This document shows positions 37,703-45,224 of a stretch of 64,000 bases of DNA, piece by piece. Source of the stretch: Candidatus Latescibacterota bacterium (GTDB taxonomy: Bacteria > Latescibacterota > UBA2968 > UBA8231); NCBI GenBank assembly GCA_965204725.1, contig OZ242005.1, forward strand, positions 2,208,001 through 2,272,000. The letters are read 5' to 3'. Made by a program: the position numbers and the translations under genes. Position 1 is the stretch's first letter; every line of letters begins with the position of its first letter. The notes beneath the pieces were generated by a model, which worked only from the letters and a program-made list of their open reading frames with translations, did no database searches and had not been told where the DNA came from.

Positions 37703-38707
37703 CTAGAACTGCCCACTGCGGGATTCGTAGCGGGTCGGCTTACCCAAGCTCGGGCCGCCGGCCATGACCCACTCGGCCACCGCGTGCAGGATATGATCCG
37801 GGCCGACGCGCGGGCGACCAAATTCCGCACACAAGCGCCGACTATCCCCCAACAGGGCGTCTGGGGCCGGCGCGCCCGTAAAGCGGGGCGTCCTACCCAT
37901 GATTTTCCCTAGTTGTTCGGCGAGATCGCGCACGGATAAGGTCGCCGGCCCCGTCAGGTTGATGACGTTGGCCGGGCTGTGGCACAGGGGGAAGAAACGG
38001 CACAAATAGGCGTTGGCGTCGCCCTGCCAAATTTGGTTGACGTACCCCATAGTCAGATCAATCGGCTCTTGCTGCCACACCTTATCGGCGAGATCGCGGA
38101 TGATGCCGTAGCGCGGCTCAGTGGCGTAAAACAGCCGCACAATCAGCAAGGGCGTCCCCCGCATCCGCGACGCGTACTGGGCAATTCGCTCCCCGCCCAA
38201 GCGCGATTGGGCGTATTCGCCCACCGGGCCTAAAGCCCCGTCTTCGGCGGCCCCCGGCCCGGGAGCCTTGGAATACGCGTACACATTGCCCGAGCTGACA
38301 TAGACGATCCGCGCCTGTGCATAGCGTTCCATCACCGCGCCGGGCAATGCGGCATTCACCGCCCACGTCGCGTCTTCATGGCCGGTGGCCCCAAACTTAA
38401 ACCCGGCGAGCAAGAGGACATTGGGCGCGTCGGGCAGTTTTTTCAGCGCCTCGTCGGCGAGCAAGTCGCAGGCGACGGTTTGCACACCCACGCTCTCCAA
38501 GTAGCACCGCTTTTCTGCATCCGCAAAGCGCGCCACTCCCACCACCTGCTGCGCCCCGGCCCGCACCAACAGCTCGGCCAGCGTTGGTCCCATCTTGCCG
38601 CTAACCCCCAGCAGCAGAACCGGTCCGTCCAACTGACGCACGGCCTCCACGACTTCAGGGGTCGGGGTCGTCATGTCGTCTATGAGCGCGGCTTCACGGA
38701 CCATCAT
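37703..38707 (-). CDS. NAD-dependent epimerase/dehydratase
   Basis: LLGVSGKMG, SSGNVY and EYAQSR motifs; start moved to ATG 38707 (AGAGAGG RBS). Confidence 0.87.
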   Translation of the reverse strand: MMVREAALIDDMTTPTPEVVEAVRQLDGPVLLLGVSGKMGPTLAELLVRAGAQQVVGVARFADAEKRCYLESVGVQTVACDLLADEALKKLPDAPNVLLLAGFKFGATGHEDATWAVNAALPGAVMERYAQARIVYVSSGNVYAYSKAPGPGAAEDGALGPVGEYAQSRLGGERIAQYASRMRGTPLLIVRLFYATEPRYGIIRDLADKVWQQEPIDLTMGYVNQIWQGDANAYLCRFFPLCHSPANVINLTGPATLSVRDLAEQLGKIMGRTPRFTGAPAPDALLGDSRRLCAEFGRPRVGPDHILHAVAEWVMAGGPSLGKPTRYESRSGQF

Positions 38708-38859
38708 AGTACCTCTCTTTCGCGCATTGTACGCCCTCGGCGGCAAGGCCGCGTTTATTATAGCCCTCTTCTATCGTATCGACAATCAGATGTGCGCTGG
38801 GCCAAACACCCCCGTATTGGTCTTAACGGGGCGAGAAAACGCGGCCTGCGACGCCGTAG

Positions 38860-38904
38860 AAAAATCGTATAAAATCGTATATAATACGATTTTATACGAT
38901 TTTT
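38860..38904. promoter_or_regulatory. Perfect 21-bp inverted repeat made of tandem AAAATCGTAT units; candidate activator/operator site
   Basis: aaaaatcgtataaaatcgtat-ata-atacgattttatacgattttt in a divergent intergenic region. Confidence 0.6.
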
Positions 38905-38972
38905 TATGGTTCCTCATTGCGCGTGTATGGGCTGAAAAAAAGAAAATTAAATTTTATAACTCCTATATTTTC

Positions 38973-38999
38973 AATCCTTTAGGATCATCCTAAAGGATT
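38973..38999. promoter_or_regulatory. Perfect 13-bp inverted repeat upstream of the sigma54 promoter
   Basis: aatcctttaggat-c-atcctaaaggatt. Confidence 0.5.
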
Positions 39000-39021
39000 T
39001 TTTTGTGCGTACCCTGATTTT

Positions 39022-39037
39022 TGGCACGCAATTTGCA
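39022..39037 (+). promoter_or_regulatory. Sigma54 (-24/-12) promoter
   Basis: TGGCAC-GCAAT-TTGCA, exact TGGCAC-N5-TTGC consensus. Confidence 0.8.
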
Positions 39038-39047
39038 TACATAATTC

Positions 39048-39187
39048 GTAGAAACAAGGCCGATGAGGAAAGAAAGGAGGGGATACGAACTTTAATATCG
39101 GCTGTTTTTCAACACTCACTTCACTCACTTCCAGTGCCGTAGCGGTATCGGGCCGCGGGCGCACTGGGCAACTTAGGAGAAAAAATC
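39048..39187 (+). ncRNA. Candidate structured 5' leader RNA, copy A
   Basis: Homologous to 44220-44348, with covarying stem CCAGTGC/GCACTGG versus CCAGTAT/ATACTGG. Confidence 0.5.
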
Positions 39188-39469
39188 ATGCAGATCTTGA
39201 GGGAGTTCTTCACGTCGTCGAGCGGGTTGGCGCCGGCTCGGCAGGGTTTGGCCCTTGGTTGGGTCATCAGTGCCCTCACGGGGATCACCGTCCTGCTCGG
39301 GGCGAAGGAAGCCGAAGCCGGTAAGTGCGAGAACCGCACTTCTGAGGACTGCGGTTACAATGCTTGGTGCGATGATGATACGGACGGGGCCGAGCCGCTC
39401 AGGTGCTGCGAAGTTACACGGCACCGTGACTGTAGCTTTTCTACAGGAGATTGCTACTGCACCGCCTAA
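39188..39469 (+). CDS. Small secreted cysteine-rich peptide (8 Cys in a 49-aa core)
   Basis: AGGAG RBS; hydrophobic leader ending AEA; core GKC...CC...CYCTA. Confidence 0.7.
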   Translation: MQILREFFTSSSGLAPARQGLALGWVISALTGITVLLGAKEAEAGKCENRTSEDCGYNAWCDDDTDGAEPLRCCEVTRHRDCSFSTGDCYCTA

Positions 39470-39526
39470 GACAACCTCAGCTATAGACCAATAGCTTTAG
39501 GGTCGTTGCTTAGGCTAAGAAGCTGA

Positions 39527-39570
39527 AGGGTCCGGCTCAGGATCTATTCTTGAGCCGGTCCTCTTTTCCT
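39527..39570 (+). terminator. Stem-loop, likely intrinsic terminator or attenuator after the peptide gene
   Basis: ccggctcagga-tctat-tcttgagccgg followed by a pyrimidine/T tract; a second hairpin lies at ~39463-39515. Confidence 0.5.
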
Positions 39571-39630
39571 TCGTACTTACGGACCGTGTCCAGTTTTCTC
39601 TTTTGGAAATGTCTCTATGGAGGTGATAGC

Positions 39631-41808
39631 ATGTTGAAGTTCGCCGTTGTTGTCGCTGTTGTGCTGTGGGGTGGCCCCGCCGGGGCGATTCGGTGGGAGT
39701 TCGACGATGGGACGACGCAAGGATGGTTTGCCAAAGAAGATCGTGTGTGGGGTGGGGAGCGTGAATTTCATCAGTTTCCGGGGGTGGTTGAAGATGGCGT
39801 GTGGCGGATCGAGGTCGATCCCGCCGTCACCCAGGGGAGTTCCTCTACGCCGAAGGTCGAATTGATTTCGCCGACCATTGGGTACGATTCGGGTCTGTTC
39901 GACCACGTCCGCATCCGCTGCCGCACCGTCCACCACCGCCCTACAATGGGTAAGTTTTCGGTCGCTTGGACCAACGAGCACAACGCCCTGCCCTCAGGTT
40001 GGGATCTTGCGTTTGGAATCCGCTCACAAGATATACTCTATACTACCGAGTGGCAGGAAGTGGTGGTTGTCTTGGCAGGTCGCGACGACAAGAGATGGGA
40101 GGGTATTCTAAAAGATATTCGGCTCGGTTTTTCACTAGATCGTTGGGAAGCCGAGCCGGCGTCCGATGTGGTTGAGTGGTTTGAGATAGACTGGATCGAG
40201 TTGACCGGCGTGGAAGAGTTGCTACAGGGGGAACTGCCACCGCCGCCGGTAGCGTATCTTCGCTGGGATGCGGCTGGGCTTTTTGCGCCGCCGCTGTTCT
40301 ATCCGATTGCGCCGGGCACCGGGCACGATAAAGGCCTTTTAGGAGGGCCGCCGGGTGTCTTGACGGATTTGGATGGCGATGGGGCCTTAGACCTGTTTGC
40401 TGTTTGGAGTGCCCCGTACGAGGAAGAGGATCAGCCGGGGTATCAAACGGGCTGGCTGATGGCCCTCAACGACGGGCACGGGGTCTTGGAACTGAGGCGC
40501 ATAGAGGAAGTAGCGGGCGCAGGGCTGCTTAGTACCGATGCGGAAACTGGAAGTATAACCGTCACCGGGGTGCTCTTAGATGCGCTAGGGGCGGACTTGA
40601 ATGGCGATGGCCAAGACGAAATCGCGTTGTATGCAAGCGCCGGGGAGGAAGCGGCAGTAGAAGTGTGGTCTATCGGGACGGACCTCCAAGTCGAGGTGCT
40701 GGTGCGAATTGAGGATCGAGATCTCGTGGATGCCGCGGATTGGGATGGCGACGGCCGGGTCGAACTATTTGTTGAGGGGAGCACCTTAGAGGTGTGGGAT
40801 GTGGAACAGGGCGTGTGGACGTCCTCTGAGGTGGCCGAGGCCCAACACCATGTGGCCCATCGGGTTGGCGATTTTACCGGCGATGGGGTGCTCGATGTGG
40901 TGTGGACACCGATTGTCGGGCAGGCGAAGACGTGGGGGGTGGGAGCCTTGGGCGATGAGTTTCAGCGAAACGAGGTCTTTGAATTCGAGGCTTGGAATCC
41001 GCTGTCAGAGGTCGGCAATGAGGCCTGGGGTCCGCTGTCAGAGGTCGGCAATGAGGGTTGGAAGCCGCTGTTAGGGGTAGGCGATTTTGATGGCGATGGA
41101 CAGGTGGATGTACTCACCGAGTTCACTTGGGATCGACTTGAAGGGAGTAAGGGGCTCGTCTGGCTGAGCAATAGTACTGGCGGCGCAGAATCGGCGGTGT
41201 TGTATGATGATCGGCTGTTTCGACGCTCGCCAGTGCTGATGCGCGATCTCAATGCCGATGGAGTTGACGACTGGGTGTTTATCGGCGGAGACCGCGCTTC
41301 GGGCTTTGGGGTGTTCGTCGAATGGGGAGGGGGCGTCCAGCCGACCCAAGACGGGGAGCGGCATCGGCTGACCGGCAGTGCGACCCGTGTGCTGTCCGGG
41401 GATATGGATGGCGACGGCGATGAGGACTTGGTGGTGTTGGATCCGATCTGGGGTGGGGTGCATGTCCTCAAGAATTCGCTGGCTTCGACGCCGACGGCAG
41501 TACAGATGTCGGCGGCTGCGCGACCGGCGCAGTACCGGCTGGGCGACAGCTATCCCAACCCGTTCAATCCGGCGGTGGTGTTGCCCCTTGATTTGGCTAA
41601 GGACGCGGCGACGGTGTCGCTGCGGGTACATGACGTGTTGGGGCGTCGGGTGCGTCAGGTGTGGCAGGGGTCGCTGGGGGCAGGTCAGCATCGTTTTACT
41701 TGGGATGGCCGCGACGAGGCAGGCAGGGCGGTGGCGGCGGGCGTGTATATCTATCGGGTCGAGATGGACGGGCGGGTGGAAGCGAAAAAAATGACCAAGC
41801 TGCCGTAA
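39631..41808 (+). CDS. Secreted FG-GAP/VCBS-repeat protein with C-terminal FlgD-Ig/T9SS-type domain, paralogue 1
   Basis: GGAGGT RBS and ATG 39631; signal peptide; multiple DxDGDG repeats; YPNPFN...WDGRDEAG...GVY. Confidence 0.85.
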   Translation: MLKFAVVVAVVLWGGPAGAIRWEFDDGTTQGWFAKEDRVWGGEREFHQFPGVVEDGVWRIEVDPAVTQGSSSTPKVELISPTIGYDSGLFDHVRIRCRTVHHRPTMGKFSVAWTNEHNALPSGWDLAFGIRSQDILYTTEWQEVVVVLAGRDDKRWEGILKDIRLGFSLDRWEAEPASDVVEWFEIDWIELTGVEELLQGELPPPPVAYLRWDAAGLFAPPLFYPIAPGTGHDKGLLGGPPGVLTDLDGDGALDLFAVWSAPYEEEDQPGYQTGWLMALNDGHGVLELRRIEEVAGAGLLSTDAETGSITVTGVLLDALGADLNGDGQDEIALYASAGEEAAVEVWSIGTDLQVEVLVRIEDRDLVDAADWDGDGRVELFVEGSTLEVWDVEQGVWTSSEVAEAQHHVAHRVGDFTGDGVLDVVWTPIVGQAKTWGVGALGDEFQRNEVFEFEAWNPLSEVGNEAWGPLSEVGNEGWKPLLGVGDFDGDGQVDVLTEFTWDRLEGSKGLVWLSNSTGGAESAVLYDDRLFRRSPVLMRDLNADGVDDWVFIGGDRASGFGVFVEWGGGVQPTQDGERHRLTGSATRVLSGDMDGDGDEDLVVLDPIWGGVHVLKNSLASTPTAVQMSAAARPAQYRLGDSYPNPFNPAVVLPLDLAKDAATVSLRVHDVLGRRVRQVWQGSLGAGQHRFTWDGRDEAGRAVAAGVYIYRVEMDGRVEAKKMTKLP
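40987..41085 (+). repeat. In-frame 33-bp tandem repeat x3
   Basis: EAWNPLSEVGN / EAWGPLSEVGN / EGWKPLLGVGD; single copy in paralogue 2. Confidence 0.85.
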
Positions 41809-41902
41809 GGAGTGGTTGAAACGTGAGCCGGTGAGAGGGCATAAGACCGCCTAAATCATCTATACCTGACTGGAGCCGAAATTGTTGCAAAGGAGATGTG
41901 CT

Positions 41903-44053
41903 ATGCTACTGCTATTCGCCGTTGTTGCCGCCGTGATGCTGTGGAACGATCCCGCCGCGGCGATCAAGTGGGAGTTCGACGATGGGACGACGCAAGGGTG
42001 GTCTGCCACAGAAGGACTTATAGGGGTGGGAGGGCCACGTGAAACGAACCTGTTTCCGGGCGAGGTCGACGAAGGCGTGTGGCGGATCGCGGTCGATTCC
42101 TCCAGCACCAGAGGGCGGGATTCCCAGGCGGATTTCAAATTGATTTCCCCGACTATCGGGTACAATTCAGACCTGTTCGACCGGGTCCGCATCCGCTGCC
42201 GCACCGTCCATCATCGTCCTACAGTTGGTCATTTTTCGATCGCTTGGACCAACGAGCACAACGCCTTGGCTGCCGGTGAGGATCTAGGAGACCCGCTGTT
42301 GTCGCTCAGCCGGTTTGAAACCTCCGTCCAAGAAATAGTCTATACCACTGAGTGGCAGGAAATCGTGCTGTCGTTGGCCGGTCAAGACGAGAAGATATGG
42401 GAGGGGTTATTGAAAGATATTCGGCTCCGTTTTCTTCTCGATACAGAGGTAGATCTTTGGTCGGCGGCGGCCGTGGTTGAGGTTGCGTGGTTCGAGGTTG
42501 ACTGGATCGAGTTGACCGGCGTGGAAGGGCTCTTACAGGGGGAACTGCCGCCGCCCTACGTAGAGTATTTTCGCTTGGACGGGATCGGCCTTTTTGCCGC
42601 GCCGGCGTTCTATCCGATTGCCCCGGGCATAGGGGGCGGTACTTATGGAGAGGAGGTCGGCGTCTTAACGGACTTGGATGGCGATGGCGACTTAGACCTG
42701 TTCGCCGTCTGGGAAGATGGTCAGATAGGGGTGGGGACTAAAGATGGCTGGCTGATGGCGCTCAATGACGGGCACGGGGCCTTGAAACTAAGGCGCACAG
42801 AGGAAGTAACGGCCACCGGGGAGACGAGTACGGATGAGGACACAGGCGTGACGAGCAGTTTCGGGGTGGTCTTAGGGGTGCTGGGTGCGGACTTGACCGG
42901 CGATGGTCGCGACGAAATCGTGCTATCTACAAGCAACGAGGGAAAGAGAACAGAAGTGTGGTCTATCGGGCCGGAACTGCAAGTCGAGGTGCTCGTGCCG
43001 ATCGCGGATCGGTGGGTCGCGGATACAGCGGATTGGGACAGCGACGGTCGGGTCGAATTATTTGTGCAGAATGTTACGTATGAGGGCAGCACGTTAGAGG
43101 TCTGGGATGCAGCCGAGGGCGGGTGGACCGCCGAGGAGGTAGCGGCCGACCCAAACTATGCGCCCAGTCGGGTCGGCGATGTTACTGGCGATGGGGTCTT
43201 AGACGTGGTGTGGGTGCCGATCGCCGGGCGGTCAAACAGGTGGCTTGTGCAGGCTTTGGGCGGGGACTTGCAGCAAGGCGAGAGCTTTGCATTCGGCGAG
43301 GGGTATAGGCAGCTATTGGGGGTGGGCGATTTTGATGGCGACGGGCAGGTGGATTTCCTCACCGAGTCCACACGGGATCAATTTGAAGGGAGTAAGGGGC
43401 TCGTCTGGCTGAGCAAGAGTACTGGCGGCGCAGAATCGGCGGTGCTCTATGATGATCGGCTGTTTCGACGCTCGCCGGTGCTGATGCGCGATCTCAACGG
43501 CGATGGAGTTGACGACTGGGTGTTTATCGGCGGAGATCGTGCTTCGGGCTTTGGGGTGTTCGTCGAATGGGGGGGACGTGTCAATCCGACCCAAGACGGG
43601 GAGCGGCATCGGCTGCAAGGCAGCGCGACCCACGTGCTGTCTGGGGATATGGATGGCGACGGCGATGAGGACTTGGTGGTGTTAGACCCGATCTGGGGTG
43701 GGGTGCATGTCCTCAAGAGTTCGCTGGCTTCGACGCCGACGGCCGTGCAGACGTCGGCGGCAGCGCGACCGGCACAGTACCGGCTGGGCGACAGCTATCC
43801 CAATCCGTTTAATCCGGCGGTGGTGCTGCCCCTCGATTTGGCGACGGACGCGACGGAAGTATCGCTGCGGGTGCATGACGTGTTGGGTCGTCGGGTGCGT
43901 CAGGTGTGGCAGGGGCCGCTAGGGGCAGGTCAGCATCGGTTTGTATGGGATGGTCGCGACGAGGCGGGCAAGGCGGTGGCCGCGGGCGTGTATGTCTATC
44001 GGGTGGAAATCGACGGGCGGGTGGAAGCGAAAAAGACGACCAAGCTGCCGTAA
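41903..44053 (+). CDS. Secreted FG-GAP/VCBS-repeat protein with FlgD-Ig/T9SS-type domain, paralogue 2
   Basis: AAGGAG RBS and ATG 41903; colinear with paralogue 1; near-identical C-terminal third. Confidence 0.85.
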   Translation: MLLLFAVVAAVMLWNDPAAAIKWEFDDGTTQGWSATEGLIGVGGPRETNLFPGEVDEGVWRIAVDSSSTRGRDSQADFKLISPTIGYNSDLFDRVRIRCRTVHHRPTVGHFSIAWTNEHNALAAGEDLGDPLLSLSRFETSVQEIVYTTEWQEIVLSLAGQDEKIWEGLLKDIRLRFLLDTEVDLWSAAAVVEVAWFEVDWIELTGVEGLLQGELPPPYVEYFRLDGIGLFAAPAFYPIAPGIGGGTYGEEVGVLTDLDGDGDLDLFAVWEDGQIGVGTKDGWLMALNDGHGALKLRRTEEVTATGETSTDEDTGVTSSFGVVLGVLGADLTGDGRDEIVLSTSNEGKRTEVWSIGPELQVEVLVPIADRWVADTADWDSDGRVELFVQNVTYEGSTLEVWDAAEGGWTAEEVAADPNYAPSRVGDVTGDGVLDVVWVPIAGRSNRWLVQALGGDLQQGESFAFGEGYRQLLGVGDFDGDGQVDFLTESTRDQFEGSKGLVWLSKSTGGAESAVLYDDRLFRRSPVLMRDLNGDGVDDWVFIGGDRASGFGVFVEWGGRVNPTQDGERHRLQGSATHVLSGDMDGDGDEDLVVLDPIWGGVHVLKSSLASTPTAVQTSAAARPAQYRLGDSYPNPFNPAVVLPLDLATDATEVSLRVHDVLGRRVRQVWQGPLGAGQHRFVWDGRDEAGKAVAAGVYVYRVEIDGRVEAKKTTKLP

Positions 44054-44165
44054 GAAGCGTTCTTAAAACTCACGTTGCTTTCGGCCTAGTCTTGCACGAC
44101 GACTCTAGGGGTCATTCCCGCGAACGCGGGAATCCAAAAAAGGACCAAGCCGAAAGGCACGTCCT
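44050..44165. repeat. Dispersed ~110-bp repeat with REP palindrome GTCATTCCCGCGAACGCGGGAATCCA
   Basis: Homologous to 60484-60585; core at 44111-44136. Confidence 0.75.
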
Positions 44166-44193
44166 GAAGGATTTTTGTTTCGAGGCTGTTCGT

Positions 44194-44209
44194 TGGCACG
44201 AAACTTGCG
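44194..44209 (+). promoter_or_regulatory. Sigma54 (-24/-12) promoter
   Basis: TGGCAC-GAAAC-TTGCG, at the same position relative to the shared leader as 39022. Confidence 0.75.
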
Positions 44210-44219
44210 TATTTATAAT

Positions 44220-44348
44220 TCGCAACGGCGAGACCGAGACCGACGAAAGGAGGTGAGATAAACCCGTATCGGCTGTTTTTCAACGTTCACTTCCAGTATC
44301 GTAGCGGCAGAGAGCCGCCAACATACTGGGCAACTAAGGAGCAGGATT
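44220..44348 (+). ncRNA. Candidate structured 5' leader RNA, copy B
   Basis: GAAAGGAGG...TATCGGCTGTTTTTCAAC..TCACTTCCAGT..CGTAGCGG..GCCGC..ACTGGGCAACT.AGGAG shared with copy A. Confidence 0.5.
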
Positions 44349-45224
44349 ATGAACTATCGATCCATGCTAATCGTCTGCTTGACGACGCTGGGGCTAGCCG
44401 CCGCTGGCTGGGGACAAGCCGACGGGAAAATAGCGTTTATCTCCGACCGCGAAGGGCACAGTGACGTGTGGATTATGCAAGCGGATGGGAGCAACCCCGT
44501 CAACCTAACCCAAGGACGGGATTGCACTAGCCCGGCGTGGTCCCCAGATGGCGCGAAGATCGCCTACATTGACCGGGGCGAAATCTGGTTGATGGATGCC
44601 GACGGCCGCAATCCGCAACAGGTGACAGACGATTCAGTCGATAAAGCGAGGCTTTGGTGGTCTAACGACGGAAGTAGCATTTACTATATCGCCGCCGTGA
44701 CCGCGCCGCTTGCGGACGAGTGGGACGGCCCTGAGGCCTTCGTTACACAACTAGATGGCAGTGGCTCCTCGCCTGCGGACTGGCGAGAGATGTACCACCG
44801 CTTCCTCCCCGGTCGTTCCCCAGACGGAACCCAACAGGCAATCATCACGTTGTGGGATGGAGGGGGCCATATCCATGCCAATTTCCTTATCCAGAGCAGT
44901 GTCAGCGACCATGAGCATCCGGGTATTCTCCTGCCTGAATCACTCCTGAATAGGCTGACTGCGGAGGAAGATAGGGATAGTTGGCAAACTTTTCCTACTT
45001 GGTCGCCCGACGGCATGAGAATAGCCTTTGCGGCCTTGATCCAGTTCAAGGGTCAGTTTGAGATTTGGGCCGCTGATATAGACGGGGACAACTGGGTCGA
45101 ATTGACTAACGGCTTAGGTGGACATTCTCCTGCTTGGCAACCGATGCTCCCTGTGGCTACGAGCGTCGAGTCCCAAACGTGGGGACGGATCAAATCGCTG
45201 CTTTCAAGTGAGCCTCGTCCGTAG
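44349..45224 (+). CDS. Secreted TolB-like (PD40) beta-propeller protein with C-terminal TWGRIK motif
   Basis: KIAFISDREG; PAWSPDG/PTWSPDG repeats; ATSVESQTWGRIKSLL tail. Confidence 0.82.
   Translation: MNYRSMLIVCLTTLGLAAAGWGQADGKIAFISDREGHSDVWIMQADGSNPVNLTQGRDCTSPAWSPDGAKIAYIDRGEIWLMDADGRNPQQVTDDSVDKARLWWSNDGSSIYYIAAVTAPLADEWDGPEAFVTQLDGSGSSPADWREMYHRFLPGRSPDGTQQAIITLWDGGGHIHANFLIQSSVSDHEHPGILLPESLLNRLTAEEDRDSWQTFPTWSPDGMRIAFAALIQFKGQFEIWAADIDGDNWVELTNGLGGHSPAWQPMLPVATSVESQTWGRIKSLLSSEPRP

Follow-up and report, generated by a model that had tools for sequence, protein, structure and literature searches.

The window analysed here, a stretch of 64,000 nucleotides (nt) of contig OZ242005.1 from a Candidatus Latescibacterota bacterium (positions 2,208,001 to 2,272,000), carries two copies of a leader of roughly 140 nt that lies between a sigma-54 promoter and the start codon of a gene. 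Copy A (39022-39190) stands before a gene for a 93-amino-acid (aa) Cys-rich peptide with no Pfam match (39188..39469), and copy B (44194-44351) before a gene for a PD40/TolB-like secreted beta-propeller protein of 291 aa, which matches PD40/DPPIV_N (44349..45224); both genes, and all the features of the two copies given below, are on the plus strand. The leader is real, under purifying selection, restricted to one genus, absent from Rfam and tied to one gene family. We propose, with moderate confidence, that it is a genus-specific, modular 5′ untranslated region (UTR) which is transcribed from sigma-54 promoters in a regulon of small secreted Cys-rich peptides and which acts in cis, post-transcriptionally.

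The first-pass annotation of this DNA had described a series of ordered blocks shared by the two copies, and we found every one of them in both, at the coordinates given there. The blocks common to A and B are, in order, ATAATTCG, GAAAGGAGG, GATA..TATC, GGCTGTTTTTCAAC and TCACTTCC, and they are followed by a hairpin, by GCAACT(T/A)AGGAG and by ATG. When A was aligned with B, the mean column identity was 82% over 217 columns, and one 17-mer, TATCGGCTGTTTTTCAA, is common to both (2 occurrences in the window versus 0.08 expected). Under the covariance model described below, A has a score of 116 bits and B one of 121 bits. The annotation had presented the two as a pair of loci sharing a leader; both are real, but they are not isolated, being members of a multi-copy family.

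Both copies begin with a promoter of the form TGGCAC-N5-TTGC, at 39022..39036 in A, with a start predicted near 39048 from promoter geometry, and at 44194..44208 in B, with an inferred start near 44220. The window contains 9 matches to this pattern at one mismatch or fewer (5.67 expected), and the 2 exact ones are those of A and B. The genome also has an rpoN gene (one Sigma54_DBD match of 199.9 bits in a 492-aa open frame), so that the assignment to sigma-54 made in the annotation agrees with both the exact spaced motif and the presence of the sigma factor.

In the alignments of the family the elements come in the order proximal inverted repeat with T-run (near -60), sigma-54 promoter, module 1, module 2. 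Module 1 has the form ..GAAGGCGAGGCCGAUGCGGAAGAAAGGAGGUGA, a hairpin P1 (GAUACG/CGUAUC) and UCGGUCGUUGCUCAAC, and module 2 the form CUCACUU, a hairpin P2 (CCAGUAC..GCGGC-loop-GNCGC..GUACUGG), GCAACUA, the Shine-Dalgarno (SD) sequence AGGAG, 8 to 12 nt, and AUG. P2 is a 14-base-pair (bp) irregular hairpin, and a linker of 6-7 nt separates it from an SD of moderate strength.

In copy A the 5′ module spans 39058..39103, as judged from RNAalifold and minimum free energy (MFE) folds. Its long-range helix H1 (GGCCGAU, 39058-64, with AUCGGCU, 39097-39103) surrounds the small hairpin P1 (GAUA 39082-85 / UAUC 39096-99) and a segment that we call the super-SD, AGAAAGGAGG (39071-39080), a complement of the 3′ tail of the genome's own 16S rRNA. 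The linker GUUUUUCAAC and the anti-SD-like stretch CACUCACUU follow (39104..39130), with CACUU conserved at about 0.8-0.9, and then P2 (39130..39168), made up of an outer stem (CCAGUGC/GCACUGG, 39131-37/39161-67), an internal loop, an inner stem (GCGGU, 39142-46 / GCCGC, 39152-56) and the loop AUCGG. The true SD, AGGAG (39175-79), and the ATG (39188-90) complete the leader (39175..39190). In copy B the super-SD is GAAAGGAGGUGA (44245..44256), which is complementary to the 16S tail over 12 nt and is not followed by a start codon. P1 (GAUA 44257-60 / UAUC 44267-70), the UCGG arm and the linker GUUUUUCAAC occupy 44257..44292, where the anti-SD-like UCACUU lies at 44287-92, and P2 (44292..44330) has the loop AGAGA, the outer stem CCAGUAU/AUACUGG (44293-99/44323-29) and the inner stem GCGGC (44304-08)/GCCGC (44314-18); the true SD, AGGAG (44337-41), and the ATG (44349-51) close the copy (44337..44351). 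The inner GCGG/GCCGC stem is therefore kept while the loop changes from AUCGG in A to AGAGA in B, as the annotation had stated. The anti-SD-like stretch of A is itself a perfect 9-nt tandem duplication (CACTCACTT CACTCACTT, 39113-21 and 39122-30), opposite which B has a 9-nt gap, and a similar insertion is found at the same place in copies L079 and L093 of genome G008.

Distribution of the leader and origin of copy B

The window's genome (5.43 Mb in 2 contigs, 60% G+C) contains three full copies of the leader, the third of which, copy C, lies at C1:1005075-1005230 on the minus strand with 81% identity, and the promoter-proximal 34-43 nt occur alone at three further places. The annotation had suggested a covariance-model search of related genomes; we built a model from 22 leaders and then aligned the 71 matches it gave in the genus, an alignment (A3) that is fitted to the model and so leans towards structure. 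A second alignment, of 57 distinct 3′ modules, is independent of structure (A4). Of the 31 genomes of the genus, 19 have matches to the model, the most in one genome being 11 (G019); among 101 genomes from other genera of the class there were none. A pattern scan of the genomes of 185,579 species returned 30 stretches, 17 of them from records of Candidatus Latescibacterota or Latescibacteria; none of the 13 from other phyla match the covariance model, and they fit chance, since about 17 chance matches were calculated for 18 fixed bases in 596 Gb. There was no match to Rfam 15 at gathering thresholds anywhere in the window. With E values up to 10, the region 38700-44600 gave 12 weak matches, none overlapping 39022-39190 or 44194-44351; the leaders thus match no Rfam family, in line with the annotation, which had recognised no named riboswitch.

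Sixty of the 64 copies of the P2-like hairpin directly precede genes of one Cys-rich secreted peptide family (58 identified by regular expression, and L095 and L125, with a start 4 nt further on, by eye). The other four are copy B, the degenerate L117 and L108, and a doubtful call, L136, so that B is the only P2 copy found before an intact gene from outside the family. The peptides begin with M-x-x-LREFF-x-SSSGLAPARQGLGLGWVISALTG...AKEAEA and end in a Cys-rich tail that is hypervariable; the conserved N-terminus of the family of A's peptide reads MQxLREFFxSSSGLAPARQGLxLGWVISALTG..AKEAEA. This N-terminus is present in 21 of the 31 genomes of the genus and has one weak match in a sister genus, with none elsewhere in the class. 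The repeated unit spans the promoter to the first ~44 codons of this one gene family. An insertion sequence (IS) end, an outcome that the annotation had named as one that would speak against a regulatory RNA, is not what we found: the copies are tied to a gene family, the features of an IS end or mobile-element repeat are lacking, and no transposase occurs among the 10 neighbouring open reading frames (ORFs) scanned, no dedicated IS database having been searched.

The two modules do not always occur together. Both are present in 46 of the 71 matches, 18 have P2 without the super-SD, 5 the super-SD without P2, and 2 have neither. Several of the 18 P2-only copies follow immediately upon the stop of an FG-GAP/FlgD_ig gene that lies upstream, and the 5 super-SD-only copies stand before other genes; the modules of the leader recombine. 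In the window, peptide gene A is followed by two tandem genes (39550-41808 and 41882-44053) for FG-GAP + FlgD_ig proteins, with a C-terminal domain of the type IX secretion system type, and in other genomes units of a peptide gene and an FG-GAP gene form tandem arrays, such as the one in G043 with four model matches about 2.6 kb apart. Another class of leaders keeps the 5′ module in the form AAAGGAGGCCGCACC (L131, L135 and L137 in G022, L097 in G006 and L136 in G013). A possible mini-ORF, MA(S/L)FV, starts 9 nt after AAAGGAGGCCGCACC in this class, and L131, L135 and L137 have a different, very stable, GC-rich hairpin of 13 bp in place of P2 before the SD.

The PD40 gene behind copy B is multi-copy. 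When we compared B with its 15 closest orthologues in other genomes (67-78% identity), we found neither P1 nor P2 before any of them. Seven of the 15 have the proximal repeat and a TGGCAC-type promoter and then a leader of another kind, which is short in three (L151, L156 and L158), and the real SD of the close orthologues is mostly GAAAGGAG-N8-ATG. The nearest relative of B, a broken copy in G046, shares the promoter and the leader through GAAAGGAGGUGA and is unrelated beyond it; the likeness of B to its nearest orthologue is limited to the promoter and the 5′ part ending at GGAGGTGA, and the stretch of B that is missing from the G046 orthologue begins in the 44257..44292 region. This relative (L114, C13:2270755-2270988) has 2 TGA stops within its first 79 codons and lies 130 nt downstream of a family peptide gene. 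Because none of the 15 orthologues has P2 and the G046 relative diverges after GAAAGGAGGUGA, module 2 would have entered B by recombination. Copy B thus looks like a recombinant in which module 2 was placed before a PD40 gene, and its super-SD may descend from the former SD of that gene.

The annotation had made much of a leader kept before unrelated proteins. The two products are indeed unrelated, a peptide without Pfam match in A and a PD40/DPPIV_N protein in B, but B is a single recombinant exception to a leader that otherwise accompanies one family, and with it the argument from independent retention before unrelated genes falls. Copy B nevertheless keeps a perfect P2, and its U-A pair is one step from the U·G seen in 15 other copies.

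Structure and substitution pattern of the leader

RNAalifold, run on 22 leaders, gave two elements, P2 and the long-range helix H1 (GGCCGA/UCGGUC), the latter enclosing the super-SD and P1; the single-sequence folds of A and B agree with this. We then measured conservation as mean pairwise identity over 35 distinct complete cassettes. Third codon positions had an identity of 0.64, in comparison with 0.85 and 0.91 for positions 1 and 2. The terminal loop (0.54) and internal loop (0.65) of P2, the linker (0.57) and the spacer between SD and ATG (0.62) drift like third positions, whereas the outer stem (0.86) and inner stem (0.81) of P2, the arms of H1 (0.90 and 0.85) and the super-SD (0.93) are conserved like codon positions 1 and 2; the true SD stands at 0.81 and the -24/-12 letters of the promoter at 0.93. 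Since loops and linkers have drifted at the rate of third positions, neutral-looking sites have had time to change, and the stems and the super-SD have not done so.

In the structure-independent alignment A4, the inner stem of P2 is paired in 96.5% of cells and shows double changes in 4 of its 5 pairs, and the outer stem is paired in 83.6% with double changes in 4 of 9, against only 29-51% of cells in slid controls. In the structure-leaning A3, double changes were found in 16 of 24 pairs, a number that none of 500 shuffles reached. We also counted single substitutions, inferred on a tree, that start from a paired state. On A4, 48 of them keep the pair and 40 break it, where 37% would be expected to keep it from the substitution spectrum of unpaired columns (p = 7e-4), and for 40 full leaders the same test gave 57.5 that keep and 35 that break, with 38% expected to keep (p = 2e-6). 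Among 739 cells of P2, G·U occurs 113 times and A·C 16 times, an excess that indicates pairing in the sense-strand RNA and speaks against both an antisense RNA and a palindrome at the DNA level. Diverged copies have a hairpin of the same size at the same place in other letters (CCCGUAG/CUACGGG in L130, UCGGC/GCCGA in L095 and L128).

It could be asked whether P2 is a DNA element, to which a dimeric protein would bind as to an operator or roadblock, or at which recombination would move the peptide cassette. P2 is an inverted repeat in DNA as well as in RNA, and the cassette has been reshuffled with break-points near P1. However, the 7 to 1 ratio of G·U over A·C cells is relevant to sense-strand RNA alone, the half-sites change together where an operator would hold each at its consensus, the length and letters of the loop vary freely, and the 10 window ORFs examined offer no integrase or transposase neighbourhood. 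We therefore regard a DNA element as very unlikely indeed. From the substitution pattern and the site-specific conservation, and not from classical covariation statistics, P2 is best described as a selected sense-strand RNA hairpin, and it is probable that the leader works as a functional cis-acting RNA structure. Selection on RNA structure beside the ribosome-binding site, which the annotation had proposed, is supported by stems at 0.81-0.86 and loops at 0.54-0.65, with the G·U to A·C ratio and with the excess of pair-keeping changes.

Several results weigh against this account. A covariation test re-implemented after R-scape (G-test, average product correction, and a null that replays the tree-inferred substitutions at random positions) gave no significantly covarying pair: the best of the proposed pairs had an all-pairs E of 184 on A4, and with scaling to the 24 proposed pairs E came down no further than 1.36 for the 40 full leaders. 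The power of such a test is low, because paired columns have only 0-6 inferred substitutions each. In the first 22 leaders, double changes occur in 5 of 24 pairs, which 78 of 500 shuffles reach, and the extended H1 helix, at 86.4% paired (compatible), has double changes no more often than shuffles. RNAalifold on the 57 modules of A4 keeps the 5-bp inner stem alone, and the folding z-scores of whole leaders are unremarkable (-1.91 for A and -0.67 for B). As the copies are recombining paralogues, the tree-based event counts are not fully independent. Finally, some family genes have no leader, for instance the peptide gene at C1:3149212-3149343 on the minus strand, whose N-terminus is 89% identical. 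The ATG of this gene lies 12 nt after the stop codon of an FlgD_ig-type gene, and only the GAGAAGAGAAUC spacer is kept. The outer stem, which the annotation had described as covarying, thus has a real difference between A and B (GC/GC versus AU/AU) that is bridged by wobble intermediates in other copies, but it has no pair that covaries significantly, and the leader remains a lineage-restricted candidate motif with weak covariation.

Such results could be taken to mean that the leader has no function of its own and that a 5′ cassette of promoter, leader and signal-peptide codons was recently duplicated and homogenised by gene conversion among paralogues. The confinement of the leader to one genus, nearly always with the same gene family, the visible recombination break-points and tandem arrays, the lack of significant covariation and the family genes without a leader would all suit this explanation. 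It would not account for conservation that is specific to sites (0.54-0.65 in loops, linker and spacer, 0.81-0.93 in stems and super-SD), nor for the excess of pair-keeping substitutions, nor for diverged copies that keep the hairpin in other letters, and the ratio of 113 to 16 is not expected from homogenisation. We consider homogenisation without function to be quite improbable.

A release of the leader, or of part of it, as a trans-acting small RNA, or its use as a sponge that captures 30S subunits or an RNA-binding protein, appears very improbable as well. The strong complement of the 16S tail and the copy of that tail described below could titrate partners, and a genome may have as many as 11 matches, as in G019. 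However, we found no terminator after P1 or P2, CsrA was not found in the genome, and the element is always fixed 8-12 nt upstream of SD and start codon; for the processed small RNA that the annotation had listed, nothing was found in support. A U-run follows H1 in some subfamilies only, with GUUGCUC in others, and for this reason an attenuator or terminator after H1/P1 was rejected.

The super-SD and its possible role in translation

The 16S rRNA of the window's genome ends in ...GGAUCACCUCCUUUCU, with the tail GAUCACCUCCUUUCU. Across leaders, the super-SD is a complement of 10-13 nt to this tail, the longest being AGAAAGGAGGUGA with 13 nt perfect; the contiguous complement is 10 nt in A and 12 nt in B. 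The predicted duplex of the super-SD with the tail has an energy of -18.8 to -22.2 kcal/mol, in comparison with -7.3 to -10.5 kcal/mol for the true SD; in A the values are -18.8 for the super-SD and -7.3 for the true SD, and the super-SD of B reaches -21.7. This segment lies about 95-110 nt upstream of the real start codon. A distant subclass of the peptides (C1:4877403, 4880223 and 4887822) has a AGAAAGGAGGU of its own about 95 nt upstream of the true SD, in a spacer that is otherwise different, and also a pyrimidine-rich stretch resembling the 16S tail. This subclass, at 47% N-terminal identity, lies in the maturation-operon region (C1:4.877-4.888 Mb); a GTG follows its upstream SD at 8-9 nt, and its two versions have no common reading frame.

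The annotation had remarked that the upstream GGAGG(T/G)GA has no conserved start codon, and 34 of the 48 distinct leaders, namely A, B and 32 others, have no ATG, GTG or TTG 4-13 nt after the super-SD. Of the 14 that do, 10 have the GTG of a 5-nt GAGGT duplication and 4 are divergent 5′-only leaders in which an ATG or GTG of their own follows at 9-12 nt. In the 10 duplication leaders, the GTG 4 nt after GGAGG opens a frame of 16-83 codons (36 codons in six) which runs through P2 and in most of them reaches the main start or goes beyond it, and such a frame could be translated into a leader peptide that controls the downstream gene. A distance of 4 nt between SD and start is, however, too short for normal initiation, most leaders, A and B among them, have no such start codon, and 1-nt and 5-nt indels exclude a shared upstream reading frame. 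An upstream ORF as the function of the super-SD is thus extremely unlikely, and a conserved one was rejected, there being no shared start codon or frame.

By analogy, the leader would be of a familiar general type, that of 5′ UTRs which are structured and contain an SD serving as decoy or standby. In the account that we favour, it would set the output of the peptide in cis and after transcription, by tuning the stability or the translation of the mRNA. The super-SD would dock 30S subunits without initiation, in the manner of a STAB-SD stabiliser or a ribosome standby site, and a docked 30S would protect the 5′ region and feed the nearby ribosome-binding site, which is weaker and partly structured. 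The role of P2 would be to keep the structure around the peptide cistron constant, even where this cistron is internal and follows an FG-GAP gene; P2 may shield a 5′ end made by processing, or keep CUCACUU next to the SD. This specific mechanism of docking and stabilising is offered tentatively, as possible but short of probable.

The STAB-SD sequence is probably GAAAGGAGG, the same core as that of the super-SD. The STAB-SD of Bacillus thuringiensis cry3A is described as an SD-like sequence that binds 30S subunits without initiating and stabilises the mRNA, is credited to Agaisse & Lereclus 1996 and Mathy et al. 2007, and is said to block the 5′-3′ exonuclease RNase J1 (PMC4113751). The leader resembles it in carrying within the 5′ UTR, some 100 nt or more before the start codon, an SD-like sequence, in the complementarity of this sequence to the 16S 3′ end without initiation (for the leader, by sequence only), and in standing before the gene for an abundantly made product that is secreted or deposited. 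It differs in that a long-range helix encloses the super-SD, in that P2 is coupled to the super-SD as a second module, and in that the host, a member of the Latescibacterota, has RNase E/G and no RNase J above cut-off. For the tisB mRNA of Escherichia coli, the standby site is described as a 30S-binding region that is single-stranded and lies 100 nt ahead of a ribosome-binding site which is itself structured, together with a 5′ structure (PMC6690012, PMC7708055, PMC5934652). To this, and to the standby model of the MS2 coat gene, the leader is similar in the position of the super-SD 96-108 nt before the start codon and of H1 a few nt from the predicted 5′ end. The tisB region is single-stranded, S1-dependent and lacks an SD complement, whereas in our leaders the super-SD has unremarkable predicted accessibility (0.48) and the true SD is only partly occluded. 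The literature searched, on STAB-SD and on sigma-54 and Cys-rich products in Latescibacteria, did not describe the leader itself.

Further points count on the other side of this comparison. RNase J (TIGR00649) was not found in the genome, which is 94% complete, the best match having 33.4 bits against a cut-off of 400, so that action like that of a STAB-SD would call for a non-classical mechanism; RNase E/G was found. For the super-SD, an unpaired probability of 0.48 is predicted, close to those of the true SD (0.47) and of the entire leader (0.43). Occlusion of the SD by CUCACUU is only partial, with a mean probability of 0.35 over 63 modules (the true SD is paired with a probability of 0.61, of which 0.35 is with the CUCACUU region). 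The super-SD could also be in part the relic of a former true SD, since the PD40 orthologues use GAAAGGAG-N8-ATG as theirs.

The main rival to docking is a translational switch of three parts, in which a mimic of the 16S tail, CUCACUUCC, pairs with the true SD (off) or with the super-SD (on), the super-SD acting as an anti-anti-SD and the choice being made by a signal or by 30S binding. Translational riboswitches and thermometers have SD-sequestering hairpins and platforms of anti-anti-SD, anti-SD and SD. The leader resembles such platforms in its upstream anti-SD-like pyrimidines, in a hairpin that brings them to the SD and in a third segment that could capture them. The three segments are mutually complementary, with -8.0 to -16.1 kcal/mol for super-SD and mimic and -4.2 to -7.4 kcal/mol for mimic and true SD. 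In many MFE folds, of A, of B and of 3′ modules, CUC-A-CU and AGGAG form a helix below P2, and across the 57 modules this basal helix is 82.2% paired, with a double change in 1 of 5 pairs. The distant subclass at 4.877 Mb has the same trio, and in its MFE folds the pyrimidine stretch pairs with the super-SD in one copy and with the true SD in another.

On the other hand, forcing the super-SD to pair with the mimic costs +8.9 to +12.6 kcal/mol over the MFE in all five leaders folded, and the helix has a double change in 1 of 7 pairs, with one column pair unpaired in 11 of 21 sequences that have both letters. L091 and L107 alter both partners without compensation. The mimic is kept in the 18 copies without super-SD and the super-SD in 5 copies without mimic, and the mean pairing probability of SD and mimic is just the 0.35 given above. 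The leader also differs from riboswitch platforms in having no conserved ligand or aptamer-like domain, no Rfam match, an alternative fold that is 9-12.6 kcal/mol worse, and no covariation in the switching helices. The complementarity of GGAGG(T/G)GA to TCACTTCC, which the annotation had pointed out, therefore holds for the isolated duplex (-8 to -16 kcal/mol) but is costly in the full leader and shows no covariation. Pairing of the super-SD with TCACTTCC as the main fold was rejected from the folding energies and the absence of compensation, and the switch built on it in the annotation is unsupported; we judge a three-part switch to be unlikely. With this, and with a compensatory change before unrelated genes that rests on one recombinant, the strongest of the original arguments fall.

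The same three segments could also work by mimicry of the ribosome, an idea that we rate as improbable. The leader would present a decoy SD (a near-perfect 13-nt target of the 16S tail), a copy of that tail (CUCACUUCC, one letter off the rRNA UCACCUCC) and a true SD that is weak; the decoy would be contested between the internal mimic and free 30S subunits, and whichever of them lost would determine if the true SD opens. If this were true, peptide output after sigma-54 activation would be coupled to spare translational capacity, and the recurrence of the trio with an unrelated spacer in the distant subclass would be a design principle and not an accident.

Two other comparisons bear on P2 and on the peptides. 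Stabilising stem-loops occur in mRNAs for abundant small proteins, as in the 5′ hairpin of E. coli ompA, in papBA and in Rhodobacter pufBA. P2 is like these as a stable hairpin directly before the cistron of a small, probably abundant product, also inside operons, and the U-rich single-stranded linker just upstream is a predicted, possible RNase E site; it differs in lying about 80 nt from the predicted primary 5′ end. Families of precursor peptides, such as the prochlorosins encoded by procA, combine an invariant leader and a hypervariable core with conserved 5′ regions. Similarly, many of our paralogues have the promoter, the UTR and the codons of the N-terminus in common and differ in a hypervariable mature part, although the likeness concerns the peptides and not the RNA, and no leader RNA motif is known from procA-type families.

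If the leader works as we suggest, it would add a post-transcriptional layer to a sigma-54 regulon of a large, hypervariable family of secreted Cys-rich peptides. The hosts are uncultured and apparently sponge-associated Latescibacterota, a phylum in which gene regulation is almost unstudied, and a super-SD without a start codon, STAB-SD-like or standby-like, would then have an example beyond the models from Firmicutes and enterobacteria. As a practical tool, the covariance model picks out the peptide genes and their promoters when new genomes of the genus become available.

Promoter-proximal repeat and upstream arrays

Upstream of the promoter of A lies an inverted repeat, ATCCTTTAGGAT-c-ATCCTAAAGGAT, followed by a T-run (38975..39006, centre near -60). 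The repeat consists of two adjacent 12-mers of the form ATCCT-NN-AGGAT and a T7 run, has a mean identity of 0.82 over the 35 cassettes across the genus, and is found at 8 promoters of the window's genome. In B only its 3′ half is present (GTCCTGAAGGAT and the T-run, 44162..44177). Although the repeat looks like a terminator hairpin, the retention of the 3′ half alone in B and its orthologues suggests a candidate binding site for a protein. The proximal element also occurs at the peptide-maturation operon (C1:4874267 and 4887557).

Further upstream, A has a palindromic array of AAAATCGTAT repeats phased at 10 bp, two direct and two inverted (38860..38904), at about -190 to -145 from the predicted start; no such array is present at B. 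Palindromic arrays of A-tract repeats with the same phasing stand at about -130 to -190 of the sigma-54 promoters of the regulon, upstream of G000 C1 2193717(-), 2184260(-), 2170712(-), 4874267, 4887557 and 1005230(-). Of their three types, AAAATCGTAT is found at A and at three other promoters, AAAAGTTGTGC belongs to the peptide-maturation operon, and AAAAGTTGTTC/AAAATCTGTTC to copy C. These arrays could be binding sites for activators or intrinsic DNA bends, and if they are activator sites, A and C would answer to different inputs.

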